Origin: an uncultured Caldilineales bacterium | GTDB taxonomy: Bacteria > Chloroflexota > Anaerolineae > JAAEKA01 | Assembly: GCA_937907455.1 (NCBI GenBank) | Contig: CALESQ010000079.1 | Span: forward strand, 1 to 64,000 | Direction: 5' to 3' | DNA length: 64,000 nucleotides | Shown here: piece after piece, positions 8,493 through 25,660 of the stretch | How the letters are laid out: the number at the start of each line of letters is the position of its first letter | Position numbering within the stretch: position 1 is the first letter of the stretch | Notes under the pieces: generated by a model | Database searches by the model: none | Seen by the model: the letters and a program-made list of their open reading frames with translations, nothing else | What the model was told of the DNA's origin: nothing | Program-made: the position numbers and the translations under genes

Positions 8493-8506
8493 CAAGGAGT
8501 AAAATT

Positions 8507-8923: not shown

Positions 8924-9059
8924 GCCCGGGACCAGAACGCGGCAATGCCCATCCTGGGTTGGGGGAGGAGGTCCAGGATAGGCATTGGTAAGCTCAGTTT
9001 ATCACAATCTGCTGAATTATGCAAGTCCTTTTTGGCTCTATTGGCGCGGCGGCAAGGCA

Positions 9060-9087
9060 TTGACAGCCAGCCGCGGTGGGATACAAT
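9060..9087 (+). promoter_or_regulatory. Near-consensus sigma70 promoter (TTGACA, 16 nt, TACAAT), flanked by the direct repeat GGCATTGACA / GGCATTGTCAACG.
   Basis: TTGACA at 9060-9065 and TACAAT at 9082-9087. Confidence 0.5.
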
Positions 9088-9128
9088 AGGCATTGTCAAC
9101 GCAGTTTGAGCCTTTTCAGCCGCTTTCG

Positions 9129-9140
9129 CCCCCCCCCCCC
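9129..9140 (+). repeat. C12 homopolymeric tract in the 5' leader of the AsnC-type gene.
   Basis: cgcc followed by cccccccccc at 9129-9140, lying between the promoter and the start codon at 9173. Confidence 0.9.
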
Positions 9141-9172
9141 GAAACGGCCTCATTTCCTCGCAGGAGCTTGTT

Positions 9173-9451
9173 ATGGTCAATGCCATTGTGCTGTTTAACG
9201 TCGAGCGCGGCCACGTCAACGCGGTGGCGCAGCAGTTGGTGGCGCTGGACGGCGTCACCGAGGTGTTTTCGGTGGCGGGACGCTACGATCTGGTGGCGGT
9301 GTTGCGCACGGCCAGCAACGAGCAGATCGCCGACCTGGTGACGCGCGCCATCATGCAGATCGAACACATCACGCACACGGAGACGCTGCTGGCCTTCCGC
9401 ATGTTTTCAAAGTACGACCTGGAGGCGATGTTCGCGGTGGGGATGGAGTGA
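9173..9451 (+). CDS. AsnC/Lrp-type ligand-binding (RAM) domain protein; stand-alone small regulator.
   Basis: 92 aa. VLFNVERGHVNAVAQQLVALDGVTEVFSVAGRYDLVAVLRT is typical of the AsnC C-terminal (RAM) domain. Confidence 0.65.
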   Translation: MVNAIVLFNVERGHVNAVAQQLVALDGVTEVFSVAGRYDLVAVLRTASNEQIADLVTRAIMQIEHITHTETLLAFRMFSKYDLEAMFAVGME

Positions 9452-9455
9452 GGAG

Positions 9456-9570
9456 GAGACAAGTACACAAGGTGACAGGTAGACAGGTAGACAGGTAGAC
9501 AAGTACACAAGGTGAGAAGGGCGGAGGCTTTGTTTCCTTGTCTACTTATTCCGTGTCTGCTTGTCTGCTC
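9456..9570. repeat. Intergenic micro-repeat. GACAAGTACACAAGGTGA flanks (CAGGTAGA)x3, followed by an inverted partial copy (cttgtctacttattccgtgtctgcttgtctgc).
   Basis: Direct reading of 9456-9570, which lies between the convergent AsnC-type and IMPase genes. Confidence 0.8.
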
Positions 9571-10349
9571 GTTATCCTCTGCAACAGCGGCTCGATCAGC
9601 GCGGCGCGCGCGGCGAGGATCGGTTCGGGCGCGGCGCGGCCATCCAACAGCGGGGTGATCTCCACGGCTGCGCCGGAGAGGTAGCGCAGTTCGATGCCCA
9701 AAGCACTCAGCAGCGGCCAAACACCAGCCAAATCCCATAGCCTGACCGGACGCAGCAGCGCGCCCACCGCCGCGCCGCGGCCTACATAGACCAGATGCGC
9801 CGCCGCGCTGCCCAAACTACGCAGCCGGGGGTAGTCAATAGTGTAAAGCTGATGCCAGTTCGACGGCACAGCCAGAAACGCGGTGCGATCCTCTAACCCG
9901 AGGGCGGGCGGCAGCAGACGGCGGCCATTCAGAAACGCACCGCGGGGGTGGCCGGTGTACAACTCGCCCACGGCAGGCAGATAAAACGCACCAGCGACGG
10001 GAACGCCCTGCTGCAAAATCCCCACGGAGATACCCCACACCGGCAAACCACTCAAGTAAGCGCGGCTGCCGTCCAGCGGATCGAGCACCCAGGTGACCGC
10101 GGGATCGTCGCCGCCCAGGTTGCCCTCCTCGGCCAGAATGCGCTCGGCGGGGAAACGGCTGCGGATGCGCGCAGCCAGCAACGCCTCAATCTGCTCATCC
10201 ACCGCGCTCACCGGCGTGTGATCGGCTTTGTCGCGCACGGCAAGATCGGCGCGACGCGCAGCCAGTGCCATGCGCCCGGCCTGCCTGAGCGTCGGCGTGA
10301 TCCAACGCAACAGCCCGCGGACAGGGAGGGACAAAGCGTTTGTTGGCAT
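9546..10349 (-). CDS. Inositol monophosphatase family protein (SuhB/CysQ-like phosphatase).
   Basis: WVLDPLDGS (compare W.IDPIDGT) and WDLAGVWPLL (compare WD.AAG). Its start lies 2 nt downstream of the stop of the AAA-wHTH gene. Confidence 0.8.
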   Translation of the reverse strand: MPTNALSLPVRGLLRWITPTLRQAGRMALAARRADLAVRDKADHTPVSAVDEQIEALLAARIRSRFPAERILAEEGNLGGDDPAVTWVLDPLDGSRAYLSGLPVWGISVGILQQGVPVAGAFYLPAVGELYTGHPRGAFLNGRRLLPPALGLEDRTAFLAVPSNWHQLYTIDYPRLRSLGSAAAHLVYVGRGAAVGALLRPVRLWDLAGVWPLLSALGIELRYLSGAAVEITPLLDGRAAPEPILAARAALIEPLLQRITSRQADTE

Positions 10350-10351: not shown

Positions 10352-11713
10352 TCAGGAGACGGCGTTCTCTGGCGTGTCCACCAGCCGGTAGCCATGCCCG
10401 CGCACGGTGAGCAGGTAGCGCGGTTGCGTCGCATCCGGCTCGATGGCGCGGCGCAGGTGGCGCATCAGCGAGTCAATGCGGTTTTCGCTGCCGGCCTTGT
10501 CAGGATCAAGCGCCTCGGTGGGGTATAACGCGGCCAAAATCTCATCACGGCTGCACACCTGGCCCAGCCGACGATAGAGCAGGCGCAGCAAGTCGTATTC
10601 CAGCTTGCTGAGATCGGCCAGGCGGCGGCCCTCCACCCACACCACGGCCGCGGCCTCGTCCAGCCACAGCCCGCGGTGGCTCAGCGTGCCTTTCTCCAGC
10701 ACGAAATGATGAAACACCGGCGAGAAAAAGGTCGGCTGCTCGCTGTTCTCGTCGCGAATTAAGCCTTTCAGCGCCAGCAATTCACGCGGGGTGTACGGCG
10801 CGCCGATGCCCTGGGCGAGGCGGCTCAAGGCCAGGCGCTCATCCTCGGCCAGGCCCTGCCACAGCTTGCGGTATTCTTCTGCGACCGCGGGCTGAGCCAG
10901 CGCCCAATGCACCTGCGCGTCTGCATCCGCGGGTAACTCGGTGCGCGCCAGCACATCAGACAACGCCACCAGCGAACCGGGGTGTCCACCGCTGAGACGC
11001 AGCATGGCGGCGATTTCGGCCTCGCTCCAGGCGCGGCCACGGCGCGCGGCGATCTGTGCAACCACCTGCCGCGCGTCCACATCGTTGTAGGGCTTCAAGC
11101 CAAGCACCGAGCGCGACAGCAACTCGTAGAAGCCTTCACTGTCCGCGCGGTCACGCAGGCGGCCCGGATGATCGCGCAGCATCAGCACAAAGCACACCTG
11201 ATAGCGGTCGTTGTCGCGCAGGGCGCGCAGATTGGCCAGCGCGGCCGCGGGCAAGGTGCGGTAGCTCTCGTCGAACTCGTCGAGGATGAAGCACAGGCGC
11301 AAACCATGCTCACGGCACAGGGTGCGCGTGGCCAGCTCCAAATGACGTTGCGCCAGCAGCGCGTCGCGGCGGGTAATTGCCTCTGCACGCAGCGCGTTCA
11401 GCCATTCGCGCGCGTCCGCGGGGACGCGGTTGCCCACGCCCTCGATCAGCGCGGTGAGCAGCAGCTCGTACAGGCCCCAGTCGCTTTTCTCGGCCAGGCG
11501 GTTGCAGTCCGCCAGCAGCAGCGCGGTGTGGAGCGCAGCCTCGCTCAGGTAGTGCTGCTGCACCTCCGCGCGCTGGAGGAAGAGCAGCAGCCGCGACTTG
11601 CCCATGCTGGCCGAGCCGATGATGGCCGCGGACTCGCCGCCGCGCAGGAGGTCAAAGAGGGGCGCGGCGATTTCGGCACGAAAAGAAAGGGGGTAATCGG
11701 TTAAAACAAGCAT
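10352..11713 (-). CDS. N-terminal AAA/STAND-like P-loop ATPase fused to a C-terminal OmpR/PhoB-type winged-helix DNA-binding domain.
   Basis: Walker A GSASMGKSRLL and Walker B LCFILDEFDE. C-terminus LSKLEYDLLRLLYRRLGQVCSRDEILAALYP...RIDSLMRHLRRAIEP...YLLTVRGHGYRL (trans_reg_C). Confidence 0.75.
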   Translation of the reverse strand: MLVLTDYPLSFRAEIAAPLFDLLRGGESAAIIGSASMGKSRLLLFLQRAEVQQHYLSEAALHTALLLADCNRLAEKSDWGLYELLLTALIEGVGNRVPADAREWLNALRAEAITRRDALLAQRHLELATRTLCREHGLRLCFILDEFDESYRTLPAAALANLRALRDNDRYQVCFVLMLRDHPGRLRDRADSEGFYELLSRSVLGLKPYNDVDARQVVAQIAARRGRAWSEAEIAAMLRLSGGHPGSLVALSDVLARTELPADADAQVHWALAQPAVAEEYRKLWQGLAEDERLALSRLAQGIGAPYTPRELLALKGLIRDENSEQPTFFSPVFHHFVLEKGTLSHRGLWLDEAAAVVWVEGRRLADLSKLEYDLLRLLYRRLGQVCSRDEILAALYPTEALDPDKAGSENRIDSLMRHLRRAIEPDATQPRYLLTVRGHGYRLVDTPENAVS

Positions 11714-11715: not shown

Positions 11716-13938
11716 TCAGGCAGGGGTTAGGTTAGGATCAGAAGGAGTTGATGCTTTTAGCAATTTTTCCCACGACAACTCAATGCCTTCCGGATCGGCA
11801 AAATCAACATAAACCAGATAGGCAATGCGCAGGGGAAGCTCAACTTTTTCCTTGCGCAAGGGGACAAAGCGCCGTTCTCGATTAGCAGAATCAAGTGTCT
11901 GTAACATCAAATTCTCGAATTCCGTCCAACCGCTATCCATGTAATTTTGTGTGAGTATAGCCACAGTTTTTCGGCTTGTCTTAATTGCACGTTCCATTTC
12001 AATGACACTAGGCGCGCCTGGCTCAAAGTCAATGAAGTCAATACAAACCTTGAGATTGGCAGCTTTCAACCGCGGCAATAACTCAGCAACCACCCAGGCG
12101 CGATCCTTTGAACTGTAAGAAATAAAAACATCATACTCAAAGGACGAAGTTGTCGAGACAGAAGGTGATGATTGAGATGGAAATGATGGCTTCTTTGGAT
12201 TGCTCCAACTCTTGGGGGGCCAAGCATCATTTTGCCCGCTGTCCAGACTGCGACAAGTTGTGCCGCCTAACAGAGCGCATCGCTCATCCAGTGGAAGATC
12301 ACCCTCTTCTATTGGGTTATCTTCCTTCCGCATAGGCAAGGTTAAACGAAATGCTGTATTCAGCAGCAACGCCCAACGGTAAGGCCTGGTATCATCACCG
12401 GTTGTTGCTTTAGCGTGTTTACGGATGGTTTTAATGGCCTCAAAAGCCTTCACTGTATCGGTGCTAGCTCCTGAAGGCAAATCTGGCTCCCAAAATTTTA
12501 CTGGGTCTGACGAAAGCAGGTTAACGACAAGATGCAGAAACTCTGAAACCTTCGTTGCAAGTACCCGAAGAAGACGGGTGAGTATATCTATTTCTAACTC
12601 AACCCAATCGGCAAAAATCGGACCTGGGCCGGAGCGTTCGAAATCAATCAACCAAAGCTGCTTGGTTGTTTCATCTATAAAACAGTTGTCGGCCTGGAGA
12701 TCGCCGTGGATAACACACATTGGAATTGACTTGGGGCTATAGTCTTGGGAAACTATATAACCATTGGTTTCGCTGGCTTGTTCTAAAGCAATTCGTTGTT
12801 TTAGCCACGTAATTGGATCTGGGAGTTTTAGTTGCTCGCTAAACCAGGCTTGAAACTCAGGCGATACCTTTTCTAAAGCGCCTGCTGATGCACCGAAACG
12901 GTTGTGCCAGTTGTTGCCCCATAATGCTCTGTAAGCTTGATAAAGAGTTACTTTATTGTCGCCTTTTTCCTTTTTTGCATCATAGTAACTCTTCCACCCG
13001 GATCCGAAGTTGTTTAATACAGTGCAGATGTCTTCTGCCTGCCTTTCTTGATAATAGATGCGAAACAGAGCACCCACATCCCCAACATTCAAATAGCGAG
13101 TACCTTGGACATCCCATAAAACAGCTTCTGATTTCAGAGTAGCATAATACCTCAATGGAAATTTATCTTCCACGTACTTCTTATAACGAGTTGATTCATC
13201 ACGCGTCGGATCTGTTCGCACGATCTTGACAATATCGGAAATTGCGTTCCCATCTCGGTTAATCCGAATAACTACTGAACGCGGACGAACGCTACCTGCA
13301 CTGGGAAAACGATCATCGCTTTCTAAAGAATGGACTGCTAGCTGCTGGGCATCAGGATATAATTTCCAGAGGAGATCTTCTATTTCATCCACAGGAACAT
13401 CATCTTGATCAGGGAAAAGGCGTTTAATTAACTGTTCCGAGCCACCAATACTAAATGGCCATTTAATAAGCTCTTTTGTAAAGCGCCCCCAGTACTGGAG
13501 CTTTACTTCTTCAATAGTTTTCTCAAGCTCCTCAGGACCACTTTCCTTACCAACAAAGTCATAAGCGCGTAGGGGTACATCAGGTGGTGATTTGATAGCT
13601 GCACGCACGGTATCTTTGTCACCGTATCCGCTCACAATAATAGACACTGTAGGAGCGAGATGAGAAACAAGTTCCAAGCCTGTCCGATCAGTGGGATCAC
13701 CATCGCTTCTGAGCCGCATATCCACAAGAGCAATATGACATCGGTAATCATGCGCCTTTTTGATAGCGTCATCCCAAAGCGCCTGAAACAGATTGTCAGC
13801 GTCTTCGGGCGCTTCAGCCGCGTACGCTTCGTAACCCCAATCAGCAAGATTTTTGAGATGATCTTGTCGCCATTGCGGATCGTTCTCCACCACCAGAACA
13901 CGCGGCAGGTTCTCTTTACCCTTAGTATTGTCACTCAT
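11716..13938 (-). CDS. Three-domain protein: response-regulator receiver (REC), protein-kinase-like (APH/choline-kinase-type) phosphotransferase domain, and a C-terminal TIR domain.
   Basis: REC: RVLVVENDPQ...HIALVDMRL...VSIIVSGYG...AYDFVGK. Kinase-like: IHGDLQADNCFID (HGDLhxxN catalytic loop) and LWLIDFERSG (DFG/IDWE equivalent). TIR: YDVFISYSSKD (beta-A), DFEPG (BB-loop P-G) and SGWTEFENLM (the W-x-x-x-E glutamate used by NADase TIRs). Confidence 0.8.
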   Translation of the reverse strand: MSDNTKGKENLPRVLVVENDPQWRQDHLKNLADWGYEAYAAEAPEDADNLFQALWDDAIKKAHDYRCHIALVDMRLRSDGDPTDRTGLELVSHLAPTVSIIVSGYGDKDTVRAAIKSPPDVPLRAYDFVGKESGPEELEKTIEEVKLQYWGRFTKELIKWPFSIGGSEQLIKRLFPDQDDVPVDEIEDLLWKLYPDAQQLAVHSLESDDRFPSAGSVRPRSVVIRINRDGNAISDIVKIVRTDPTRDESTRYKKYVEDKFPLRYYATLKSEAVLWDVQGTRYLNVGDVGALFRIYYQERQAEDICTVLNNFGSGWKSYYDAKKEKGDNKVTLYQAYRALWGNNWHNRFGASAGALEKVSPEFQAWFSEQLKLPDPITWLKQRIALEQASETNGYIVSQDYSPKSIPMCVIHGDLQADNCFIDETTKQLWLIDFERSGPGPIFADWVELEIDILTRLLRVLATKVSEFLHLVVNLLSSDPVKFWEPDLPSGASTDTVKAFEAIKTIRKHAKATTGDDTRPYRWALLLNTAFRLTLPMRKEDNPIEEGDLPLDERCALLGGTTCRSLDSGQNDAWPPKSWSNPKKPSFPSQSSPSVSTTSSFEYDVFISYSSKDRAWVVAELLPRLKAANLKVCIDFIDFEPGAPSVIEMERAIKTSRKTVAILTQNYMDSGWTEFENLMLQTLDSANRERRFVPLRKEKVELPLRIAYLVYVDFADPEGIELSWEKLLKASTPSDPNLTPA

Positions 13939-16900
13939 GATTTCGCTCCTGAATTACTTGGCTTAGATGGCAGGCGGATAGCGAACAAAGCCCCTTGACC
14001 TTCAACGGCTGGGTAGAGATGGATGCGCCCGTTCATTGTTTCGATCAATGATTGGGCAATCAGTAAGCCAAAACCACTGTTTTGCTGGGTGTCGTCATTC
14101 TTTTTGGTCGAAAAGGGTCCGCGCAAAAGGTGTCGCCGCGCTTCAAAATCAAGACCAGGGCCGTTGTCCTGAATTTGCAGTTCCACTTGCTCAGAGGAAA
14201 GACGGTGGACGCGCAACGTGATTTGCTTAACAAGGGTTGTCGCCAGCGCTTCGGCTGCATTGCGCAATAGATGGCGTACAGCGCGCCAGGTTTGTTCTTT
14301 GTAGGCATAAACGACATGATCTTCATCGTCGGCAAAGGTTATCTTTACGTCGGAAGCGTTCGTGATGCGCCAGTGACGCACTCGGGGTTCGAGGAATTCT
14401 TTCAAAAAAAATCCGACCGGATCATTTCGTTCTATGTGCGCGTCACGCACAGTGTCTGCCAATTGCCCTGCGCGTCCGTCAATCTCTTTAGCCCAATCCA
14501 CTTTTTGATCTGCGGTAGCCCTGGTATCTGTTTGCAGCCAGCCCGCACGATTGCGAATATAGCCCACCTCGCTGTTGATGTCATGAGCAATATCAGCCGC
14601 CCAGGCCATCGCGCCGGCCACTGAAACGCGACTCTGTGCCAATGCAGCATGGCCTAAGCGGTCAAGCGCCAAAGCAACTTGTTTGGCTGCCATTTCAAAA
14701 AGTCTCTCGTCGTCTTCACCAAAAGCATTCGGTGTGTCACTCTTGATCACCAAGACCCCGATCAGCTTATCGTTGCTGCCCAATAAGCCAGCGCATAGCT
14801 CAGACTGTGTGTTTGAGTTGACTTCAACATATATGCCCTTGTACTTCTCGTCATGAACGTTTTTGACGTTTTCTATGATGATTTTCTTCTCGTTAAGGGA
14901 ACGTCGGGCTACCTCGCAGGTGATCCCTTCGCCGTCAAGGGGTAAACGGACACGGTGCTGATATTCAGGTATTGTAGGCTGATAAAATTCCCTTGCCACC
15001 TTGGGAAGCTCTAACACATCCTCGCGATCCTCGTAGAGCATAATATAAGGCGTTGCTGTAGGATCTTTGCGGCTAAACTCCTCTTTTAAGACGTTTAATA
15101 CGCCGCGCAAAACAGTGTCAAGGTCCAGGCTGGCTCCTGCGGCGGTGGCAACCCTCAAGGCAGTCTCAAATCGTTGCTGTCGCTGCTGTGCCAATTCCAG
15201 CGTTTGCGCATTGTGGATGGCGGTGGCAGCAGCGTCGGCAAAGGCGGTGAACAAGGCCCGCTCAGTAGCCAAAAACTCATGACGTTTGCGATAATTTAAG
15301 AATAATGCTCCAATTGCAGCAGATTTGGTACCGAAGCGCAAGGAAAGTGCCGCAGTTGAGAAAATGCCCTCCTCGCGCGTAAAGTCTCCATCTAAGACGG
15401 AGCCGTTCTCTATAACCGAAGCAAACAAAGGATTAGGGCGCTCCATCACGGTTTTCACCAGGTGATCACTGGTTCTGCTGCCACGATGTTTTTCGTTTTG
15501 TACATTCCATTGCGGCCCTGAAATCAGCTTGTCTTTGTCTTCTGCATCGGTATACCACATGGTGATGCAATCCAGTTCCGGCGCCACCTTGCGGGCATAC
15601 GCGACGATGGCGTCGAGGGTTGTGGCTAAGTCCATAGATGCAGACACGGTAGCAATCGTCTGCGCCATGGTTTGCAGATCACTGCGGGTGCGTACGCTAT
15701 CCAACGCCAACTCGCAGGCCCGGCCCAAGCGCTGTAAGCTCTCTTCATCCAGAGTGCTGAAGGATGCTTTCTTGTCTGATTGGCGGACGGCCAATGCGCC
15801 GATGGCTTTTTCACCGGTGCGCAGCAGAACAATTAAATCATTCTTGTTGCGGTGTAAAGGCTTGTTTTGCTCCAAAACCTGGCCAATCGCTCCAGCATGG
15901 ATTTCGCTAGACAGCGAGCGCAGCTCGCCTTTTGGGGTGAGATGATAATCGCGGCGCATTTGCTTGCGCTGTTCCCCTTCTCCTTCCCAGTGAGCTATAG
16001 CCAGAGTAGTTTTGACTCGGTGATCGAACAGGTCTGCAGTATTCGATAGAATGGAGCGTCTTAACTTTTTCTCATCCACATCGGAGGCCAACGCTTGAGC
16101 TTGAATGTTCGCGATCAGTTGCATGCTAAGCCGTTGCCGTTCCATGCCATGCTCAGCTTGGACGCGCCCATGTTGTTCCTGCCCGAATTCACGCGCATAG
16201 CTAATGACCGTAGCGCCAATTGTCGCCAGATGTTCGGAGCGGGCAATGTCCTCTTCGGTGAAAGATCGCGGTGTACGATAGTCAAAATAAATCACACCCA
16301 GCGGTTCTGCTGTCAAGGCTTTGCGCATGGGAACGGCTATCATTGCTTTGACACCTTCACGCTTGACAAATGAATGTTCAGCGAGGCGCTTGCCCCCAAA
16401 CTTTAGCGTAGAATGATCAACGTCAGCTACCACCAGATTACCAGATTGCAAGACCGAAAAGGTGACGCCTTGTTGGCGCGGTTTGTTTTTAGAGATGAAA
16501 TCATCACCGTGGTTCAAGCCACGATGGACAACGTTGTTCAAGTCATAAGCGCCTGTTTCAGCCAGATAGGGATAAATCACAATACTGTTCGCTGACATGA
16601 TGGAATCAGCGGATTGGTCACACAGGTCTTGCAAGCTCTCTTTTAAGGGTCGCTGGGCTGCCCGCTCGGTGATGCGCCGGTTGAGTGCGAGGATGTTTTC
16701 ATACTTTTCGCCAAGCAGGCGACTTCGGTTTCTTTCCTGTGCCTGCTGCCATTCAGTCATGGCCTGCGCCAGCAATTCTTCCACCTTGCTCAGATCGCCA
16801 TGACGAAGGGGCTCGCCGTCAAAAGCGTTGTCTACCCACAAAACCCCGATGACTTTGCCACCCTGTTTGACCGGCAGCAAGGCGCAGTCGTAGTCTGTTG

Positions 16901-18809
16901 CCTTGTCCAGTAAATCAGATGGGTGGGGCAATGAACTTTCCGGCAGCGCATTTTCCAATGCCGAAGAAGCCATGGTTCTGCGTGCTGGACTACGCAAAAT
17001 ATCAACCTGCTCTGAGCTAAGTCGCCACTCAACGACTGCCTGTTGCAGAGGGGTTGGATCAGACAAGGCCAGATGAGGAGCGGCAAAGTAGTCTTGCAGG
17101 CTTTTTTTGCCATCGCGATCCTTTTCCCAGGACCCCCGCGCCTCTTTGCGCGTCCAGTGGCCAATGGCCATGCGTCCCATCCAGAGGCTATCTGCCACCG
17201 GCGATTGCAAAAACAGCAAGGCGCGGTTGAAACTGTTGCCCTCGCGATGGGTAATCGTAGTCAACACGGCATGCCAAAAGCCTTCTTCTGACTCCTCGAT
17301 CAAACGCGGCAGCACGGCCCGGAGTTGCTTGGCTGCTTCATCCTGGCGCTTCTTCTCTTCTTCGCGCTCGTGCTGATAGGCCGCATAAATCGCACCGGCA
17401 ATTTGATCAGCAATTTTGCCGAGTAGCTGCTGATGGCTAGGCGTATAGGATATTTTTTCATCATAACTTTGAACAGCTAGCACACCAATGACTTTTCCAC
17501 TATCTAATCGCAGTGGCACGCCCAGCCAACAAGCAGCCGGCCTGCCAAAATGGTCAATGCCATTATCTTGACAGAATTTTATCGCATCATGAAAAAGCAG
17601 AGATTGGTTTTTGGATATGAGATAACCACTCACTGCACTACCTGGTTTATGCCAGTGGCGATCTTGTAACACGTTGTCTTCATAGTGTCTTCGATAATCA
17701 AGATAGCCTGTTTCCAAATCGGACAAAACAACCATAAAGTTAGATACATCCAGCTTGACACGTTTTCCCACCAGGCGGCGTATCTCGTCCAGCAGTTCAT
17801 CGAGATTGCTGGTAGCGGCTTTGGTAATGATCTGCCTGCCAATGGTACTCAACAACTCCGCTTCCCGCGCCTGCTCTTGCGTTTGCTCATGCAGCCGCGC
17901 CCGCTCTAACGCCGCTGCGGCCTGATTGCCGAACAAAGCTAATACCGCCCCGATTTGATTGCGCTGTTGTGCGCTAAAAGCAGAATCCAGTTCATCGTTG
18001 TCCAGAGTGAGTGTACCAACTTTGTGGTTTCCGCTCGACAGCGGGATTTTTACCCATTCTCCGACCGGTGGTTGCATCCCTTGGGCTGCATAAAATTCAT
18101 CAGTTCCACCCTTACCTGCCTCACGCGCCTTGAAGATCATCGGCTTGCCAGCTTCAATTGCTTGCTTGGAATACATTAACTCCTTCAAAGGTGCGCGCAA
18201 ACCTGCAAACCCTTTCAAGCGAGCGGTGCCTGCCTGACTAACACCTACCATTTCAGGATCACCCTGTGCTTCCTGGCCTTGTTCTACCAAGAGGCGCAAG
18301 CGCGCGCGCTTAAAATCAAAGTGTAGAGCGCCCTGAACAATGGCATCGGCTACAGCTTGCACGGTCGAGGCGCTCTGCATGGCGGTGGTGACCTCGGTCA
18401 AAATTTGCAGCCAGTTGCGTTCATTGCGAATACCACGGCTTTTTTCAATGGACTTAAGCACGTAGACGAGTTCGCGCGTGTCAAAAGGCTTGGTCAGATA
18501 GCGATACGCCCCCAAATCAAAGGCAGCAATCCCCGCCTCAACCTCGTTGTAACCAGTCAGGATGATGGCATCGCTTTCCGGGCTGAGATCGCGCAGTTGC
18601 CCCATCAAGACAACACCGTTAACGTCCGACCCTTCCAGGCGTTGATCCAAAACAAAAGCAGCAAAAGGCGAGGCAGCCTCCTTCACCGCCAAACGCGCCT
18701 GTGCTGCGCTGTTGACGGCAACCACATCAAATCCTTTTTCGAGTCGCCTCAGTTGCTCACCGAGCATGTGAGCAAGTACTTCGTCGTCGTCTACAATTAA
18801 AATACGCAT
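13935..18809 (-). CDS. Giant hybrid sensor histidine kinase: N-terminal REC, at least 6 tandem GAF domains, HisKA and HATPase_c (about 1,625 aa).
   Basis: REC: MRILIVDDDEV...AFVLDQRLEG. GAF cores, for example ACWLGVPLRLDSGKVIGVLAVQS, LGVIYFDY, IGALAVRQS and LIGVLVIKS. H-box ADIAHDINSEV. HATPase_c: QDNGPGLDF...GFGLLIAQSLIETMNGRI. The start was placed at the internal ATG at 18809 (MRILIV), giving a 16-nt gap to the upstream gene. Confidence 0.8.
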   Translation of the reverse strand: MRILIVDDDEVLAHMLGEQLRRLEKGFDVVAVNSAAQARLAVKEAASPFAAFVLDQRLEGSDVNGVVLMGQLRDLSPESDAIILTGYNEVEAGIAAFDLGAYRYLTKPFDTRELVYVLKSIEKSRGIRNERNWLQILTEVTTAMQSASTVQAVADAIVQGALHFDFKRARLRLLVEQGQEAQGDPEMVGVSQAGTARLKGFAGLRAPLKELMYSKQAIEAGKPMIFKAREAGKGGTDEFYAAQGMQPPVGEWVKIPLSSGNHKVGTLTLDNDELDSAFSAQQRNQIGAVLALFGNQAAAALERARLHEQTQEQAREAELLSTIGRQIITKAATSNLDELLDEIRRLVGKRVKLDVSNFMVVLSDLETGYLDYRRHYEDNVLQDRHWHKPGSAVSGYLISKNQSLLFHDAIKFCQDNGIDHFGRPAACWLGVPLRLDSGKVIGVLAVQSYDEKISYTPSHQQLLGKIADQIAGAIYAAYQHEREEEKKRQDEAAKQLRAVLPRLIEESEEGFWHAVLTTITHREGNSFNRALLFLQSPVADSLWMGRMAIGHWTRKEARGSWEKDRDGKKSLQDYFAAPHLALSDPTPLQQAVVEWRLSSEQVDILRSPARRTMASSALENALPESSLPHPSDLLDKATDYDCALLPVKQGGKVIGVLWVDNAFDGEPLRHGDLSKVEELLAQAMTEWQQAQERNRSRLLGEKYENILALNRRITERAAQRPLKESLQDLCDQSADSIMSANSIVIYPYLAETGAYDLNNVVHRGLNHGDDFISKNKPRQQGVTFSVLQSGNLVVADVDHSTLKFGGKRLAEHSFVKREGVKAMIAVPMRKALTAEPLGVIYFDYRTPRSFTEEDIARSEHLATIGATVISYAREFGQEQHGRVQAEHGMERQRLSMQLIANIQAQALASDVDEKKLRRSILSNTADLFDHRVKTTLAIAHWEGEGEQRKQMRRDYHLTPKGELRSLSSEIHAGAIGQVLEQNKPLHRNKNDLIVLLRTGEKAIGALAVRQSDKKASFSTLDEESLQRLGRACELALDSVRTRSDLQTMAQTIATVSASMDLATTLDAIVAYARKVAPELDCITMWYTDAEDKDKLISGPQWNVQNEKHRGSRTSDHLVKTVMERPNPLFASVIENGSVLDGDFTREEGIFSTAALSLRFGTKSAAIGALFLNYRKRHEFLATERALFTAFADAAATAIHNAQTLELAQQRQQRFETALRVATAAGASLDLDTVLRGVLNVLKEEFSRKDPTATPYIMLYEDREDVLELPKVAREFYQPTIPEYQHRVRLPLDGEGITCEVARRSLNEKKIIIENVKNVHDEKYKGIYVEVNSNTQSELCAGLLGSNDKLIGVLVIKSDTPNAFGEDDERLFEMAAKQVALALDRLGHAALAQSRVSVAGAMAWAADIAHDINSEVGYIRNRAGWLQTDTRATADQKVDWAKEIDGRAGQLADTVRDAHIERNDPVGFFLKEFLEPRVRHWRITNASDVKITFADDEDHVVYAYKEQTWRAVRHLLRNAAEALATTLVKQITLRVHRLSSEQVELQIQDNGPGLDFEARRHLLRGPFSTKKNDDTQQNSGFGLLIAQSLIETMNGRIHLYPAVEGQGALFAIRLPSKPSNSGAKS

Positions 18810-18825: not shown

Positions 18826-21039
18826 TCAGATACGATAGGGCAGCTCCACCGCCATGGTGGTGCCCCAAAGGGTATGGCTGGACTCGATAAATACACGACC
18901 GCCCTGAGATTCGATCAGGCTGCGGGCAATGAACAACCCCAGACCGCTTCCATCTTCTCTGGTGGTATAGTCCATCTCAAAAATTCGTTCCCACAAGCGC
19001 TGATGAATGCCCGGGCCGTCATCCTGCACATATAAGCGCAGGATGTTTTTTCCTTCATGTTTGGTTTGTAGCATTTGAATTTCAACCCGGCCGCCACGCT
19101 CCGGTCTCGTTAACGCGATTTGCTGGATGGCATTTTGTACTACATTCACCAACACCTGTTGCAGGTAGGTAATCATCGCCCGCGTGAAATAAAGTTTGGG
19201 AGCTGGGCGGAGAATTAATTCAACTTTGTTTTCTTTGGCCGTTTCGCTCAGCAGGCTCACCACTTCATGGGCAACTTCGTCCAGACGAATTAATTCTTCC
19301 ACCCCTGAGCGTGTTATTTTGCCGAAAGAGTGCATCGTATGGGCCATGCTTTGTGTTTGTTGCGTCAGCTTTTGCAGTTCTTCTTTTGTCCGTGCTGTTT
19401 CCCTGATAACTTCCTCAGGAGAAGTAAGGGCACATTGCTCTACCCGCTTGCAGCCCTCTTCGAGATCCCGCAAGATAAGATTGAGTGGGCTAATACGTCC
19501 GCTGATTTCATGAATCACGGTGCGGCTCAACTGCCCCAGCAAAGCAACCCGTTGTAAATCCGCCGTTTGTTTAATCAATTGCTGGCGTTCCAGCCAGGAA
19601 GCAATGCGCGCCGCGCTTCCTTCGGCGCTGGCGATCAGCCCATTGGGGATGAAAGCGAGCGGGTGACTGAAAAACAGGAACAATGCGTAGCGTTTGCGCA
19701 GATGAGCCGGCACCGGCACGCCGCAGCACGCGCTGAAATCAAGCAAAGGCAGCACGTGTCTTAAGCGTCCGGCGGTTTGCTGCTGAACATGGTTAGCAGT
19801 AAAAACAGTCTGCTCTTCAGCCACGTTGCGTATCGGACTGTAGATTAGCTCCGGCCACGCCGTGTTGCGCAAAGAAACAGGCCCTTTGTGTTCAAACACC
19901 TTGATCTGCGCCTGATCTGTATCCAGCTCAAAGAGCACTGCCTTGTCAGCTTGCGCAGCACTGATAGCACGCAGCAGCATAACAGCCAGTTCGCTTTGTT
20001 CAGCCTTGGGTACGGTAAATACAGATTGTTCTAATGTCATACGGGTAGGCGAACTGGAAGGTGCTAGTGATTGGTCGGGCTTTTCCAGCAACATTTCAGC
20101 TAAATGGTTAGGCAGTAAAGGCTTGATCAAGAGCGATACTCCCTCTTTGCGCAGGGGCGTTAGCTCCTTGTCACGGCGTTCTGCCCTTCCCCAATCGGTC
20201 ATCAACACGCAGCGCAGCTCAGGCCATTGGAATCTGATCTGCCGGGCTGCGGCAATGCCATCCATGCCGGGCAGGCCAATATCCATCAACACCAAATCCG
20301 CCGATTGTGCTTCAAGAAAGGCAAGAGCCTCCTCTGCCTTCTCAGCCACATAAACGACACGTTGACCGACATTACGTAGCCAGTTCGCCAGCGACAGACG
20401 TTGATCCTCCTCATCTTCTACCACTACGATAGATTTAGGAACGCTGCTCAAGAGCTGTTGAATAGCGGTATTGTTAAGTCGGCTGGGAGACAATCCCTGT
20501 ACTGCACTCTTTGTCACAGTTTCAGGGTAGTGCCCGGCGCTATTCCATCGGTATTTTTCCAGTTGGCGCATGCTCAAAGCAACCCGTCTGCGCTTGCGGT
20601 CAACCGCGTCTATCGTTACTTTGACCAGATCACCGGGCCAGAAAACATCACCTATTGCCTCTTGTTTCCAATCGGGAAGATGAGAGATATGAACCAACCC
20701 AGAAAAGTCCTTTTCGAGCTTAACAAATACCCCATACGGCATGATGCCATCAACAACGCCACTAACTAAAGCGCCTACTGGAAAGCCATCAGCAGTGACA
20801 TTCCACAAATAAGCTTCAGCCAGCCAAATTTCCTCACTGTGTTGGCCCACAGCTTCGATTGGCTGTACAACGATTTCCAGCGAGTCTCCAGGCTTGTAAC
20901 GAGGAATTCTGGGGAACTTTGCCAGGATTTCAGGATTTGTGTCCCGCACCAACCCCTGCCGCCCATCCGGCAGCGCGACAATCAACCCGGCAGGGGTTGC
21001 GCGCACAACACGGGCATGGAGGGGCTGCGAGTAAAGCAT
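18826..21039 (-). CDS. Hybrid sensor histidine kinase with two N-terminal S1 RNA-binding domains, then REC, HisKA and HATPase_c.
   Basis: S1 domain: GALVSGVVDGIMPYGVFVKLEKDFSGLVHISHL...GDLVKVTIDAVDRKRRRVALSMRQL. REC: KSIVVVEDEEDQRL...DLVLMDIGLPGMDG. H-box VIHEISGRISPL. HATPase_c: YVQDDGPGIH...GSGLGLFIARSLIESQGGRV. Confidence 0.75.
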   Translation of the reverse strand: MLYSQPLHARVVRATPAGLIVALPDGRQGLVRDTNPEILAKFPRIPRYKPGDSLEIVVQPIEAVGQHSEEIWLAEAYLWNVTADGFPVGALVSGVVDGIMPYGVFVKLEKDFSGLVHISHLPDWKQEAIGDVFWPGDLVKVTIDAVDRKRRRVALSMRQLEKYRWNSAGHYPETVTKSAVQGLSPSRLNNTAIQQLLSSVPKSIVVVEDEEDQRLSLANWLRNVGQRVVYVAEKAEEALAFLEAQSADLVLMDIGLPGMDGIAAARQIRFQWPELRCVLMTDWGRAERRDKELTPLRKEGVSLLIKPLLPNHLAEMLLEKPDQSLAPSSSPTRMTLEQSVFTVPKAEQSELAVMLLRAISAAQADKAVLFELDTDQAQIKVFEHKGPVSLRNTAWPELIYSPIRNVAEEQTVFTANHVQQQTAGRLRHVLPLLDFSACCGVPVPAHLRKRYALFLFFSHPLAFIPNGLIASAEGSAARIASWLERQQLIKQTADLQRVALLGQLSRTVIHEISGRISPLNLILRDLEEGCKRVEQCALTSPEEVIRETARTKEELQKLTQQTQSMAHTMHSFGKITRSGVEELIRLDEVAHEVVSLLSETAKENKVELILRPAPKLYFTRAMITYLQQVLVNVVQNAIQQIALTRPERGGRVEIQMLQTKHEGKNILRLYVQDDGPGIHQRLWERIFEMDYTTREDGSGLGLFIARSLIESQGGRVFIESSHTLWGTTMAVELPYRI

Positions 21040-21157
21040 GGTCGGCAGCTTTCGTGAACAGAAAACAGCATACAGACGAGGACGATAACGCGGGGAAAGT
21101 TCACTCGCTATTATAACACAGCCACACTGCCCTGCTGCTATCAGATTTCTGGCAAAA

Positions 21158-21262
21158 TCCTGACAAAGCTGTCAAAGATTTCTGACATGCGCCTTTTGTC
21201 AGAAATTGCAGCCAGTTGTCAGCCGCCAGACAGCCTGGTGTCAGGTAGGAATTCCTGACCTG
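21158..21262. promoter_or_regulatory. Array of TGTCAG/CTGACA inverted repeats (candidate operator sites) in the promoter region of the S1-HK / TIR operon.
   Basis: CTGACAaagcTGTCA (21160-21174); TTCTGACAtgcgccttTTGTCAGAA (21180-21204); TTGTCAGccgcCAGACA (21216-21235); GGTGTCAGGtaggaattCCTGACC (21238-21260). Also a direct repeat AGATTTCTG x2. Confidence 0.55.
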
Positions 21263-21342: not shown

Positions 21343-21567
21343 ATGGAAATCGCACTCGTGTTGCTGTTCATCATCGGTCTGATGGGTGTCTACATTCTTT
21401 ACCTGACCGTGCGCCTGAGCCTGTCGAGCCGCACCACGATGGTAGTGATGGCCCCAACTCCTGCTGGCGAGCAAGGTAACGGCTGCGGCGTGGCCGTGTT
21501 CCTGATCCTGACCATCATTGCAGCCATCATCCTCACCCTGGTCTTTGGACCGATCTTTCTCGGATAA
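21343..21567 (+). CDS. Small two-TM membrane protein (hypothetical).
   Basis: RBS AAAGGAG; two hydrophobic helices (LVLLFIIGLMGVYILYL and VFLILTIIAAIILTLVFG). Confidence 0.5.
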   Translation: MEIALVLLFIIGLMGVYILYLTVRLSLSSRTTMVVMAPTPAGEQGNGCGVAVFLILTIIAAIILTLVFGPIFLG

Positions 21568-21620
21568 ACTACCCCCACTCTATAATCACTCCGCAACCCC
21601 ATTTGCAAAGGAGTATCCCC

Positions 21621-21983
21621 ATGAACACCCTCACCGCCAAACTCTACGAGAAGAAACTGTTGGAAGAAAAAGCTTGGTGCACTGACATGATCGAACACCT
21701 GGCTGACCATGCCACCATGGACCCCCAGAACAACTACGCCGTAACAATGGCTCGGCACAAGCTGGTCAAGATCGAACGGGCTTTACGCCGGGTTGCTGCC
21801 GGCACCTATGATCAGTGCGACCAATGCGGCGACAAGATCGAGGCGGAGCGCCTTGAAATCCTGCTTGACAGCGAACACCATAGCTGCGCCCGTTGCGCCA
21901 CTGCCATTCGTCCCACCAACAAGCGAATGCCGGTGCGCCAACCAGCCTACGGCTACGGCCAGATGGCCCTGGCGCAGGCATAG
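21621..21983 (+). CDS. DksA/TraR-family C4 zinc-finger protein.
   Basis: CDQCGDKIEAERL...HHSCARCA four-Cys finger after an N-terminal coiled coil. RBS AAAGGAGT upstream of the ATG at 21621. Confidence 0.65.
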   Translation: MNTLTAKLYEKKLLEEKAWCTDMIEHLADHATMDPQNNYAVTMARHKLVKIERALRRVAAGTYDQCDQCGDKIEAERLEILLDSEHHSCARCATAIRPTNKRMPVRQPAYGYGQMALAQA

Positions 21984-22536: not shown

Positions 22537-22797
22537 ATGGGTCAACTCGTCTGGCATCGGCACGACATCGAGAATATCCTGCGCGGCGTGGAGCTGGCAG
22601 GCCTGCAAACCGCGGGTCAGATGAATGACGCAGAGCTGGCCGGCTATCGCCGCGGCTTCCTGGCCGCGTTGGCGGCCACGGCTACCAGCTTCGGCATTGA
22701 GGTGAGACCCTTGCCTCTCGCCGCCCCCGCAGAAAGCCAACTCCCCCCCCTTACCCCCGCGCATCACCGCTATCCAAACCGAACGGGAGAGCGCTAA
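22537..22797 (+). CDS. Hypothetical small protein (weak call).
   Basis: ORF from the internal ATG MGQLVWHR. No recognisable domain. Confidence 0.3.
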   Translation: MGQLVWHRHDIENILRGVELAGLQTAGQMNDAELAGYRRGFLAALAATATSFGIEVRPLPLAAPAESQLPPLTPAHHRYPNRTGER

Positions 22798-24189
22798 CTT
22801 AGCGAATCAGGGCCTGCACCGCGGTTGCCCATGTTCCTCAGCAATTCCATCATCAGCAAACGCGTTACCATGTCCATTTCCTGACCGGTGGCGCTGGTGG
22901 CGGTATTACCGCTGCGCTGAATCTGCTCAATCATACTGAGCATCAGCAGATCGTTAGGGCTGGTATGGTAACTTCGCGCTTCACGCATAGCATCTGACAT
23001 TTTTTTTAGCGCTTCGCCGCGACCTTCAGCGACGTGAAAATCTATATCGCGCTGCAAATCAGCCTGCTCCCAGGCGAATTTTTGATCTTTATCAGCTACC
23101 CAGCGTTGCATAAGTCGCTGCGCGGCCAGGTCGGGGATGGTCACCGCGCCGATGCCGGTAATTGTCACTGTTACGCCCAAAAATTCATCGGTTACTTTGT
23201 TCACCAAATTACCCAGCTTCTTCTTGAATTCCGTTCGTCCTTCGCCATTCAACTTCAGAAACGTTTCCAGATCATAATCGGCAATGGCGTTGCGCGCTTC
23301 GCGTTCGGTAATGGCACGTACCGCGGTCCCCCAACTATTACCAGATGGCGACCAAACCTTGTTTGTGAGAAACATGTCCAGGTTCTTTTTCAGCTCCTGC
23401 GCAGAAATTCCCTTAAACTGTGGGGGGTTCACCTTGTGAAACACCGCCAGATTTAACTCTTCAATCACCAGAGGATCGCTGGTAGAGGCATTTCTCACCA
23501 CCACGGCTTCTCCTCTGCCAAAGAGCGGCACCACCATACAGATGCGCTCCATAGCTCCTAGCCAATGACTGCCTTCTTCTATAAAACGGGCGATACGGCC
23601 ACTTCGCTCGACAATCACCACATGATCGCGCTGCACTTCGATGGCTCCCGGCCCGGTGAGCACGGGATACGGAGGCGGAGCGGCCCGCAGCGTGACGATC
23701 TCGCCGTTGCGTATCTCCCATTCCGCCGGCACCCAGCCCAGGGCGCGCCGTAAGCCCAGCGTAAATGCATCGAACTTGCTCACACCCATCACTTGCGAGT
23801 CCGGCAGCAGGCGCAACAGCCTCACCGGCCCCAGCAGCAACGCGAACAACACCAGGGTGCCACCCATGCCCAGCAGCAAACCCCAGAAGTTTTGCAGCAG
23901 CGCTGTACCTGCAAAGACATGGATAAAGCGCGCCGCCGTGCCTTCGCTGAATACCTCATGCACACGGCCAAGTCCCCAGCGAAACAGCCAGGCAAGGGCC
24001 AATGCCTGCATAACAAACAGCCCACCATAGATGGCCGGGCGCTCTCGCCCCGGCGACCCGCGCAATAAAAGGAACATACACACGGCCAATGCCGCCGGCA
24101 CCAGGAAAATAATCCAGGGCCAGCCCAACTGAAGCGACCAAAAACCAGTAGCCACCATCACAAGGAGGATTAACAACGAACGCACCATG
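22794..24189 (-). CDS. Polytopic membrane protein (4 N-terminal TM helices) with a C-terminal soluble domain of possible SPFH/band-7 type (uncertain).
   Basis: N-terminal hydrophobic helices; C-terminal alpha-helical Lys/Glu-rich region. No diagnostic motif. Confidence 0.4.
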
Positions 24190-24433
24190 ACGCACCTCCA
24201 CTTGCCACCACCAAAAACCAAACCCGAAAGACGACAGCCACACAGTGCAAAATTTAGCAGCGTTGCACAGTCGCCGGCCCACTCCGAGCTTCCAACTCCA
24301 CTGTCTGGGCAATTTCTGCCGCAAGGGCAAAAACCCCCAAGTTAACAAGAAACAAAGCGTCACTATTGTCACACAAACAGATAACAAAAACCATGATTTA
24401 AATCATATTAGCCTTGCCAAAATCAGGGCGGCC

Positions 24434-25660
24434 ATGTTAGAATCGCAATACAGGTCCCTCATGCCCACCCTTCCCCCCATCCTCTTCTTCACCCCAGACC
24501 CTCCGAATGCGATCTGGCAGGACAAGCCGCAGATCGCGCGGCGGCTGGCGCGGCTGGCTCCGCTGCTGCTGGTGCCGGAGGAGCCGACGCTGCACGGCCA
24601 AACGCCAGGACACGACCAGCTGCGCGCCGCCCTGAGCCGCCAGCCCGACGGCCTCTGGTGGCTGCGCTGGTCGCCGCTGATGCCGCTCACCCCCGCGCCG
24701 CTGCTCGGCTCGTTCAGCGCGACCCTGCGCCTTCGCCGCCTACAACGCGCCCTGCAACGGGTGATCAATGACTTTGCCACAAAGGCACCCACCACCGCCC
24801 GGGCCTCGCAGCGCGACCCCATCCTCTGGTTCTTCCGCCCGGGTCAGCAGCATTGGATCGAACCGCTGCGCCCGCGCCTGGTGATCTACCATGTGGTGGA
24901 TGAGTACAGCGCCTACCCTGGCTTAACGCCTGCACAGGTGCAACGCCAGCGCGAGCTGGACGCGCAGCTCACCAAACGCGCCGATCTGGTGTTCTGCACC
25001 GCGCAAAGTCTGGTGGAGGCGCGCCGCCCCCTCAACCAACACACGTATTACCTGCCCAACGCCGTAGATTTTGCCGCCTTTGCCTCGCCCATCACCAGCG
25101 CGCCCGCATCGCCTGAGGCCGCAGCTTCCCAATCCCCCACCCTCGCCGTAGTGGGCGGCATCAATGCCAAGGTAGATCTGGCCCTGCTGGCCGAACTGGC
25201 CGCGCGCCGTCCGCACTGGCTGATCAAGCTGGCAGGGCCGGTGAATGCCAGTGCCGATGCCGCTGCGCTGGCGCGGCTGCGCAGCTTGCCCAACGTCGTT
25301 TTTGCAGGCACAGCCCCGCCGCACGAAGTGCCGGCCCTGCTGAGCCGCTGTGATGTAGGGCTGATCCCTTATCGCCTCACCGAGCAAACGCGGCACGTCA
25401 ACCCGCTGAAGGTGTACGAGTATCTGGCTGCTGGCCGCGCGGTGGTAGCCACGCCGCTGCCTGAGCTACACCAGTTCCAGCCGTTGGTGCGTCTGGCTGC
25501 TGATGCTGATAGCTTTGTGGCCGCGGTGGAAGCCGCGCTGGCCGAGGCGCACGCCCCGCAGGCCATTGCCGCGCGGCGCGCTGTAGCCGCGACCAACACC
25601 TGGGATCACCGCGTCGCACGCATGACCGAGCTGATTGAGCAACGCCTGGCCGTCGCGTAA
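24434..25660 (+). CDS. Glycosyltransferase family 1 (GT4-type) protein.
   Basis: C-terminal GT1 signature NVVFAGTAPPHEVPALLSRCDVGLIPYR...NPLKVYEYLAAGRAVVATPLPE. Start placed at the internal ATG MLESQ. Confidence 0.7.
   Translation: MLESQYRSLMPTLPPILFFTPDPPNAIWQDKPQIARRLARLAPLLLVPEEPTLHGQTPGHDQLRAALSRQPDGLWWLRWSPLMPLTPAPLLGSFSATLRLRRLQRALQRVINDFATKAPTTARASQRDPILWFFRPGQQHWIEPLRPRLVIYHVVDEYSAYPGLTPAQVQRQRELDAQLTKRADLVFCTAQSLVEARRPLNQHTYYLPNAVDFAAFASPITSAPASPEAAASQSPTLAVVGGINAKVDLALLAELAARRPHWLIKLAGPVNASADAAALARLRSLPNVVFAGTAPPHEVPALLSRCDVGLIPYRLTEQTRHVNPLKVYEYLAAGRAVVATPLPELHQFQPLVRLAADADSFVAAVEAALAEAHAPQAIAARRAVAATNTWDHRVARMTELIEQRLAVA

Follow-up and report, generated by a model that had tools for sequence, protein, structure and literature searches.

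The window analysed here is a stretch of 64,000 nucleotides from an uncultured Caldilineales bacterium of the Chloroflexota (GenBank assembly GCA_937907455.1, contig CALESQ010000079.1, positions 1 to 64,000 of the forward strand). Five genes are closely packed on its minus strand, and the first of them (gene 1) encodes a soluble histidine kinase that carries two S1 domains at its N-terminus. A first-pass annotation, made from the letters alone, had predicted an S1-kinase fusion at 18826-21039. The open reading frame (ORF) on the minus strand has exactly these ends, starts with ATG and encodes 737 amino acids, and the prediction is borne out by the Pfam scan, which places S1 at residues 87-158, Response_reg at 204-316 and HATPase_c at 625-736. 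The fusion of S1 to a kinase is real, constant throughout a large family and under constraint, and the operon that it heads appears to encode a two-component relay with an RNA-binding module, which is unusual, and with a kinase/TIR regulator gated by a receiver domain. Gene 1 and its domains, with the evidence for each in brackets, are as follows.

18826..21039, minus strand: gene 1, soluble S1-S1-REC-GAF-DHp-CA histidine kinase (ORF, Pfam, orthologue family, AlphaFold model)
20821..21021, minus strand: S1a, residues 7-73, a degenerate S1/OB fold without the aromatic binding residues (family profiles, predicted fold)
20566..20781, minus strand: S1b, residues 87-158, a canonical S1 domain (Pfam S1, match to bS1 in PDB, conserved residues)
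20092..20430, minus strand: REC, residues 204-316, with D253, T281 and K306 (Pfam Response_reg, 65.6 bits)
19669..20007, minus strand: divergent GAF, residues about 345-457, running directly into the DHp helix (Pfam on orthologues, profile match, model)
18832..19644, minus strand: kinase core, consisting of DHp (466-576, with H510) and CA (583-736) (invariant boxes, HATPase_c, Foldseek)

From the N- to the C-terminus the domains thus follow the order S1a-S1b-REC-GAF-DHp-CA, and the AlphaFold model of the whole protein has a mean predicted local distance difference test score (pLDDT) of 79. No membrane segment was found in gene 1, as the first-pass annotation had held for the kinase: the highest Kyte-Doolittle mean over 19 residues is 1.64 and falls within the strands of S1b. 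Residue conservation was read from an alignment of 42 sequences, in which the mean pairwise identity is 0.55 for S1b, 0.52 for CA, 0.48 for S1a, 0.47 for REC, 0.41 for GAF and 0.39 for DHp, so that by this measure S1b is the best-conserved domain of the protein. S1b and REC are separated by a linker of some 40 residues (161-200) with 18 % identity and a pLDDT of 32-40, i.e. it is flexible and modelled with low confidence. Because this linker is neither conserved nor confidently modelled, the S1 pair is not rigidly coupled to the rest of the protein, and classical allosteric sensing by the S1 pair through a rigid transmitter is unlikely.

The claim of two S1-like domains holds, on different evidence for each. 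The hidden Markov model search that had been proposed as a check gives S1b 57.4 bits to Pfam S1 (PF00575), for which the cut-off is 22, and the motif by which the fusion was originally recognised, GVFVKLEKDFSGLVHISHL...VALSMRQL, falls within this domain. Against ribosomal protein bS1 in PDB, S1b reaches an E-value of 1.3e-31, with the best stretch at bS1 residues 271-355; the closest repeat is domain 4 of E. coli bS1, which has been described as mRNA-binding. It also matches the CvfD/GSP13 models of NCBIfam. The canonical binding face is kept, with Y102 in 40 of the 42 sequences, F105 in all 42, H117 in 41, D147 in 30 and R151 in 35, followed by R152; we take the first five positions to be those of F19, F22, H34, D64 and R68 in the S1 domain of PNPase. 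In our own judgement S1b is likely to bind RNA, and we hold this to be more probable than any of the readings of the whole system given below. S1a is more remote. Pfam on the first 86 residues of the window copy returned only a sub-threshold match to S1_RRP5 (14.7 bits, E 0.045), and the domain was not accepted on Pfam alone; family profiles and structure were used instead. Among the 25 members of the domain alignment, 19 match Pfam S1 on their own (best 4.3e-9), and the family profile matches ribosomal protein bS1 with an E-value of 6e-23 along its successive repeats. Moreover, the five-stranded OB barrel that is a feature of S1 domains is present in S1a, both in the AlphaFold model of the whole protein and in that of residues 1-83 alone (pLDDT 71). 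On its binding face, however, the family has Ala or Phe at position 17, an aliphatic residue at 20 and an invariant Arg (R32) instead of His, and the window copy is degraded further, with T34 and N35 where the family has Arg and Glu and with the loss of a nearly invariant Trp. Canonical nucleic-acid binding is therefore probably absent from S1a, as far as its residues tell.

Behind the flexible linker, the receiver domain keeps its phospho-acceptor D253 in 41 of the 42 sequences and K306 in all of them, and T281 is conserved. The domain list given in the first-pass annotation, REC-HisKA-HATPase_c, was right about REC and HATPase_c; a divergent GAF domain between REC and DHp had been missed. 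Pfam on residues 320-581 of the window copy gave no match, and GAF was assigned from scans of the orthologues and a profile search: 10 of 17 family members match Pfam GAF or GAF_2 (best 1.5e-5), and the family profile of the region aligns over its full length to the GAF domain of PtsP (3ci6, E 0.03). The model shows an alpha/beta GAF fold whose last strand continues into the long DHp helix from residue 466, and it places a disordered stretch (321-346) plus the GAF domain between REC and DHp. As for HisKA, Pfam gave no match at E-values up to 0.1 for the whole protein or up to 10 for residues 320-581, but the element that the name stands for is there, a DHp hairpin formed by the helices 466-539 and 541-576 (model) with H510 invariant in an H-box of the form HE(I/V)(S/N), which reads HEISGR in the window copy. 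The CA domain scores 62.3 bits to Pfam HATPase_c, and the residues of its N, G1 and G2 boxes (N632, N636, D673, G675, G677, G697, G699 and G701) are invariant in the alignment. NCBIfam models of whole kinases span DHp and CA, an AtoS-like one aligning over 484-736, and Foldseek also retrieves the cores of HK853, WalK and ZraS. The catalytic positions of both the kinase and REC are intact.

The label of a hybrid kinase, which the first-pass annotation had used, does not fit, since the usual hybrid kinase has a C-terminal REC and here REC precedes the catalytic core. For the same reason we call gene 1 a Rec-controlled kinase like LvrB of Leptospira, the prototype of such kinases, for which activation by REC phosphorylation has been worked out (PMC13269768; PDB 8vc9). 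LvrB (8vc9) is the top structural match of the whole gene 1 model in Foldseek (E 2e-17), both proteins are soluble and have an N-terminal REC with an intact phospho-acceptor before DHp-CA, and the NCBIfam model of LvrB aligns to residues 473-725 of gene 1. The score of that alignment, 56.7 bits, is far under the cut-off of 500. Furthermore, LvrB has neither S1 nor GAF, and its REC joins DHp by a single helix, whereas a GAF domain intervenes in gene 1. It had also been proposed that the S1 pair is the input domain of the kinase; this cannot be kept in that form, as REC and GAF are present as well and only GAF is helically coupled to DHp.

The family of gene 1 is sharply delimited, uncharacterised and almost entirely confined to the Chloroflexota. 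A word-indexed search recovered about 45 full-length relatives at 32-99 % identity, all with S1, REC and HATPase_c, and all of the named ones come from metagenome-assembled genomes (MAGs) of Chloroflexota; below them the score falls from 367 bits to 118 bits, where ribosomal protein S1 and generic kinases begin. Searching representative sequences gave 348 clusters (50 % identity) at E-values up to 1e-30, and nearly all of the best 150 are full-length, with about 730-780 residues and identities as low as 26 %. When one genome per species was scanned, 57 species, which is a minimum for the family, proved to have a full-length or near full-length relative; they belong to Anaerolineales, Caldilineaceae, Chloroflexales, Roseilinea, Thermoflexales and Ardenticatenaceae, plus one MAG labelled Nitrospirae. 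These searches were driven by homology, and they returned only the S1-kinase family together with bS1. The combination of domains has already been recorded by automated annotation: the 99 % match is named 'MAG: response regulator [Caldilineales bacterium]', and an annotation of the Joint Genome Institute reads 'signal transduction histidine kinase/predicted RNA-binding protein with RPS1 domain'. Searches of open-access papers and bioRxiv turned up neither a histidine kinase with S1 domains nor an S1-kinase operon.

Two members that start at REC were considered as S1-less relatives and rejected, because they are split genes with an S1 ORF directly upstream; no true S1-less member of the family was found. 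In these two loci (L084 and L085; L-numbers are our labels for related loci) the upstream S1 ORF has 198 or 216 residues and the overlap is 11-38 nt. The split between the S1 and the REC-kinase ORFs (L084, 5415-7638; L085, 5388-7629) lies within the variable linker. In L084 the downstream kinase region is also fragmented, which may reflect a frameshift or pseudogenisation, and L085 adjoins genes for AbiEii, Fic and an IS66-type transposase.

Downstream of gene 1, the operon continues with four genes.

13935..18809, minus strand: gene 2, REC-GAF(x5)-kinase, about 1624 amino acids from an ATG at 18809 (Pfam Response_reg, five GAF stretches, HATPase_c)
11716..13938, minus strand: gene 3, REC-TCAD9/APH-like kinase-TIR protein (Pfam TCAD9, APH, TIR_2)
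10352..11713, minus strand: gene 4, STAND-type P-loop ATPase with a C-terminal OmpR-type winged helix at residues 366-444 (Pfam AAA_16, nSTAND1, Trans_reg_C)
9546..10349, minus strand: gene 5, protein of the inositol-monophosphatase family (Pfam Inositol_P, 111.9 bits)

Between the stop of gene 1 at 18826 and the start codon of gene 2 (ATG, 18809) lies a 16-nt spacer with GGGAAGGGA; an ATGA (-4 nt) is common to genes 2 and 3, and 2 nt separate genes 3 and 4. In all, the operon holds two kinase cores and three REC domains. The possibility that genes 1 and 2 are recent duplicates was rejected, as only the region of the G2 box aligns between them (31 % over 75 residues). In gene 4, the Walker A residues G38 and K39 and the Walker B residues D145 and D148 are invariant in the family alignment (A5), and the family has two forms, about equally frequent, one of about 450 residues with the OmpR-type winged helix and one of about 350 without it.

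Gene 3 connects the kinases with the TIR domain. Its protein consists of REC (14-142), the TCAD9/APH-like kinase (364-524) and TIR (602-718). An alignment of 28 TCAD9 proteins (A4) gives the N-terminal consensus RVLVVEND...LALVDMRL...VSGY...FVGK with D73 and K131 of the receiver domain invariant; Pfam Response_reg is matched by 22 of the 28 (best 1.5e-10), and a profile of the family finds receiver domains of the CheY-like and NtrC kinds at about 1e-9 (9e-10 for the CheY-like). By these sequence features the TIR-bearing protein is a response regulator, and since it starts with a REC domain, the kinases of the operon would have a phospho-acceptor within the operon itself and thus a signalling link to the TIR protein. 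The motif HGDLHxDN and D432 are also invariant among the 28 proteins, for which reason the APH-like domain looks active. The TIR domain scores 80.9 bits to Pfam TIR_2 and keeps the Glu in SGWTEFE, which aligns with SEWCHYE of TLR1/6 (the W-x-x-x-E position). Among solved structures, the best matches of this domain (window 11785-12135) are the animal proteins TLR6, TLR1, TLR2 and MyD88, with up to 46 bits; these best animal matches are of the scaffolding type, and the bacterial TIR NADase AbTIR matches at 23 bits only.

Synteny was examined by tblastn of the window proteins against the loci of the 57 species, and the counts below refer to the loci with enough flanking sequence. The order S1 kinase, REC-GAFn-kinase, REC-TCAD9/APH-like kinase and, often, STAND ATPase is fixed. 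In 50 of 51 loci the gene next downstream of the S1 kinase encodes the REC-GAFn-kinase, 41 of 43 contain the TCAD9 protein, and a STAND-type ATPase follows in 28 of 39, half of these with the winged helix; the phosphatase of gene 5 has no adjacent counterpart in the related loci. Independent gene calls on two metagenome contigs gave the same gene order. The part that changes is the effector. In about a quarter of the loci, CHAT, caspase, TIR, NUDIX or channel modules are joined to the gene 3-type regulator or lie next to it: CHAT is fused to the TCAD9 protein in six loci (L004, L005, L017, L039, L040 and L053) and a caspase domain in L009, separate CHAT and NUDIX genes occur in L018, and a pentapeptide/ion-channel gene takes the effector position in L001. 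The TCAD9 gene of L005 has, besides CHAT, a sub-threshold match to TIR_2. Directly after this CHAT(-TIR-like) extension, at 13392-15062 of L005, an insertion sequence element (DUF4277 and a DDE transposase) lies between the TCAD9 gene and the STAND ATPase gene.

The first-pass annotation had spoken of a TIR locus, and this is true of the window, in which TIR stands at the C-terminus of gene 3, two genes downstream of the S1 kinase, but not of the family, in which no fused or downstream TIR was found by tblastn in any of the 57 related loci. TIR was accordingly rejected as a conserved partner. Another locus, L061, is rearranged at 6917-9816, with a STAND-type ATPase and a separate TIR match upstream, not downstream, of the S1 kinase, and represents a second, independent association with TIR. 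The link between the system and TIR is real but specific to lineages.

The region upstream of gene 1 contains one further feature.

21140..21250, no strand assigned: upstream control region with a TGTCAG/CTGACA cluster (5 sites in 111 nt, 0.06 expected)

These sites, at 21160-21244 and thus upstream of the start of gene 1 at 21039, form the densest such cluster in the window. The cluster holds three GCCnnnTGTCAG direct repeats spaced by 20-22 nt and a perfect 10-nt palindrome, ATTTCTGACA-N9-TGTCAGAAAT; an extended -10 element, TGTGTTATAAT at about 21111-21121, was also found upstream of gene 1. Promoter and terminator scans did no better than on shuffled controls. We regard the TGTCAG cluster as a candidate operator that might be bound by the winged-helix protein of gene 4. 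Moreover, a search of the whole window with Rfam at gathering thresholds found no RNA family, and there is therefore no known candidate for an RNA ligand nearby.

The composition of the window between 9700 and 24500 is a mosaic. GC content is 66-68 % in the inositol-monophosphatase and the STAND-winged-helix genes, falls sharply at about 11.7 kb to 43-47 % over the REC-TCAD9-TIR gene, is about 49-54 % in the two kinases and returns to 66-68 % beyond 24.5 kb. This suggests different donors for different modules of the operon. Divergent from the S1 kinase, on the plus strand, lie an ORF of 74 residues with two hydrophobic segments and an AAGGAG ribosome-binding site (21343-21567) and an ORF for a DksA/TraR-type zinc-finger protein (21603-21983). 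The DksA-like gene and the genes for Band_7 (22794-24221) and a glycosyltransferase (24245-25660) are syntenic with L004, L005 and L056. The genes that flank the operon in the window are more similar to those of L056 than to those of L004 (for Band_7, 555 and 291 bits), and for the S1 kinase the ranking is reversed (418 and 703 bits, respectively); such discordance between flank and operon fits a replacement of the operon from another lineage at a conserved site. On the other side of the operon, a plus-strand gene (5332-7122) encodes 596 residues with a weak TGS match, a phosphoribulokinase/uridine kinase domain and a weak nSTAND3 match, and is followed by genes for an extracytoplasmic function sigma factor and OsmC.

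The arrangement is best compared with Detocs (DtcA/DtcB/DtcC; Rousset et al. 2023), an antiphage system in which a kinase phosphorylates a REC-effector protein, effectors are swappable and an extra REC buffers phosphate leakage (bioRxiv 10.1101/2023.01.24.525353). Like the Detocs effector, gene 3 has an N-terminal REC and a C-terminal effector of toxic type (TIR), the effector can be swapped between loci, and the extra REC domains of the window operon could buffer phosphate. The differences are several: DtcA senses through TPR, whereas here two soluble Rec-controlled kinases carry S1 and GAF modules; the stand-alone REC (DtcB) has no counterpart; REC and effector are set apart by the APH-like TCAD9 kinase; a STAND-type ATPase usually goes with the system, whether or not it has a winged helix; and most loci lack a toxic domain. 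Pfam scans found neither a TPR domain nor a stand-alone REC gene in the operon. PADLOC gave no system-level match for the locus, only weak REC matches in gene 1 and TIR-type matches in gene 3, and no Detocs-named model was matched, the presence of Detocs profiles in that release being unconfirmed. Since a TPR kinase, a stand-alone REC gene and a PADLOC match are all lacking, the window operon is not a member of Detocs.

A second relation is to the NTP-dependent conflict systems of multicellular bacteria, including the vWA-MoxR-VMAP ternary systems (Kaur et al. 2020, PMC7159879; 2021, PMC8195603). TCAD9, STAND, TIR and caspase modules are hallmarks of these systems (PMC7159879), and receiver domains, but no histidine kinases, have been reported among the effectors of the vWA-MoxR-VMAP type (PMC7159879; PMC8195603). 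The operon family shares with them the TCAD9/APH-like kinase, the STAND-type ATPase, TIR and caspase/CHAT effectors, REC domains and a preference for filamentous phyla, Chloroflexota among them. It differs in that two kinases are core components, the related loci being likewise centred on kinases, and in that Pfam scans of the operon genes and their neighbours found no vWA, MoxR or VMAP gene. As to the S1 pair, its relatives are bS1, with RNA-binding domains 3-5, and GSP13/CvfD: the tandem of S1 repeats recalls bS1, and S1b has the binding-face residues of all these proteins, whereas gene 1 has only two repeats, of which the first is without aromatics, and has them fused to a signalling kinase instead of at work on the ribosome.

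Considering the gene order and the conserved residues, we assume that the operon encodes a two-component system for defence or suicide in filamentous Chloroflexota, similar to Detocs, in which the RNA-binding module supplies or localises one input; we give this reading a probability of roughly 0.4. Gene 1 would act as a cytoplasmic Rec-controlled kinase with the S1 pair, REC and GAF as three regulatory modules before the core. S1b would bind single-stranded RNA and, because it hangs on a flexible linker, binding would more readily serve to tether the kinase, to cluster it or to lift an inhibitory contact than act through a rigid helical transmitter. Phosphorylation of D253 may free the catalytic domains as in LvrB, and GAF could feed a small-molecule signal straight into the DHp helix. 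Phosphoryl groups would move between the two kinases by way of their REC domains and end on D73 of gene 3, whose phosphorylation would switch on the APH-like kinase and, in this genome, TIR. RNA sensing by the S1 kinase is plausible, and its ligand may be foreign or cellular nucleic acid.

Several observations weigh against the defensive Detocs-like reading. Beyond the TIR domain, PADLOC finds no known defence system, and a fused or downstream TIR is unique to the window. About 27 of 46 loci end after the APH-like domain with no recognisable toxic effector, and this effector-less majority would fit a regulatory system with occasional add-ons equally well as a defence system. The receiver domain of gene 3 is sub-threshold in Pfam in the window copy (16.7 bits). 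In addition, S1a lacks the aromatics of the binding face and has decayed further in this copy, and the flexible, unconserved linker from S1 to REC means that a coupling between RNA binding and kinase activity is not evident from the predicted structure.

The strongest competitor, though in our estimate somewhat unlikely, is that the same relay serves as a physiological regulator, in which the S1 pair reads endogenous RNA or the state of translation (free mRNA, ribosome status or products of RNA decay), the GAF arrays respond to metabolites, the normal output consists of transcription via the STAND-winged-helix protein and of the APH-like kinase, and TIR, CHAT and caspase are lineage-specific additions. 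It is favoured by the three-gene core, which is syntenic in at least 55 Chloroflexota species with one locus recovered per genome, by the lack of toxic effectors in most loci and of a PADLOC system match, and by the chromosomal site beside Band_7, DksA-like and glycosyltransferase genes that relatives have in common. The OmpR-type DNA-binding domain on half of the gene 4 proteins agrees with it too, and the repeat cluster upstream of gene 1 would suit a regulator that binds direct repeats. However, the effector slot, where it is filled, holds only modules of the death type (CHAT, caspase, TIR, NUDIX, channel), which is odd for a housekeeping function, and the other known settings of the TCAD9 and STAND modules are conflict systems. 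Exchange between lineages is indicated by the compositional mosaic and by the mismatch in similarity of flank and operon, and one relative adjoins AbiEii, Fic and a transposase.

It is known that domains 1-2 of bS1 are protein-protein adaptors and that protein-binding domains of bS1 have lost the aromatic binding residues. The S1 pair of gene 1 might thus not sense at all and serve instead as an anchor to ribosomes, mRNA or an RNA-degrading complex, as a REC-controlled RNA-binding output, or as an adaptor between proteins. S1a resembles the protein-binding domains of bS1 in its missing aromatics, the tandem with its DPW-type junction resembles the bS1 repeats, the 40 unconserved residues between S1b and REC offer no helical transmitter, and conventional inputs are already supplied by REC and GAF. 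We nevertheless regard a non-sensing S1 pair as unlikely: the binding face of S1b is conserved at the level expected of a working RNA binder, the output of a response regulator normally follows REC and here S1 precedes it, and anchoring and sensing are compatible with each other.

In eukaryotes, PKR combines double-stranded-RNA-binding domains with a protein kinase. The S1 kinase could be PKR-like in its logic, detecting foreign or aberrant single-stranded RNA, such as phage transcripts or mRNA left uncovered after translation arrest, and arming, through a His-Asp relay, a receiver-gated TIR, caspase or CHAT suicide effector in a filamentous, multicellular Chloroflexota host. The likeness, which is one of analogy only, lies in nucleic-acid-binding domains on a flexible linker before a kinase that would set off a shut-down; neither the folds nor the chemistry are related, with dsRBD and a Ser/Thr kinase on one side and S1 and a His kinase on the other. 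We consider this PKR-like version distinctly improbable.

Finally, a non-functional relic, a chance fusion or an annotation artefact in the S1 region, to which the sub-threshold S1a of the window and two database relatives annotated without S1 might have pointed, is effectively refuted and has next to no probability, as S1b is the best-conserved domain, the architecture does not change across the 348 clusters even at 26 % identity, and behind each 'S1-less' protein stands a split gene whose S1 ORF lies next to it.

The known inputs of histidine kinases are small molecules, light, redox state, the state of the membrane and proteins. Nucleic acids would join them with a kinase family in which an RNA-binding module is obligate and conserved. 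The gene cluster, moreover, joins two fields that have been treated apart, two-component phosphotransfer and the conflict systems built on TIR, caspase and STAND modules. The assignment of gene 3 as a response regulator makes the pathway directly testable at defined residues, namely H510 and D253 of gene 1 and D73 of gene 3. Should the PKR-like version be true, the operon would represent a kind of two-component immunity, triggered by nucleic acid, that has not been described before. A defensive role would make the system a second case of Detocs-type immunity, independent of the first and relying on another sensor; a regulatory role would point to a phosphorelay that senses RNA state or translation state in a poorly studied phylum.

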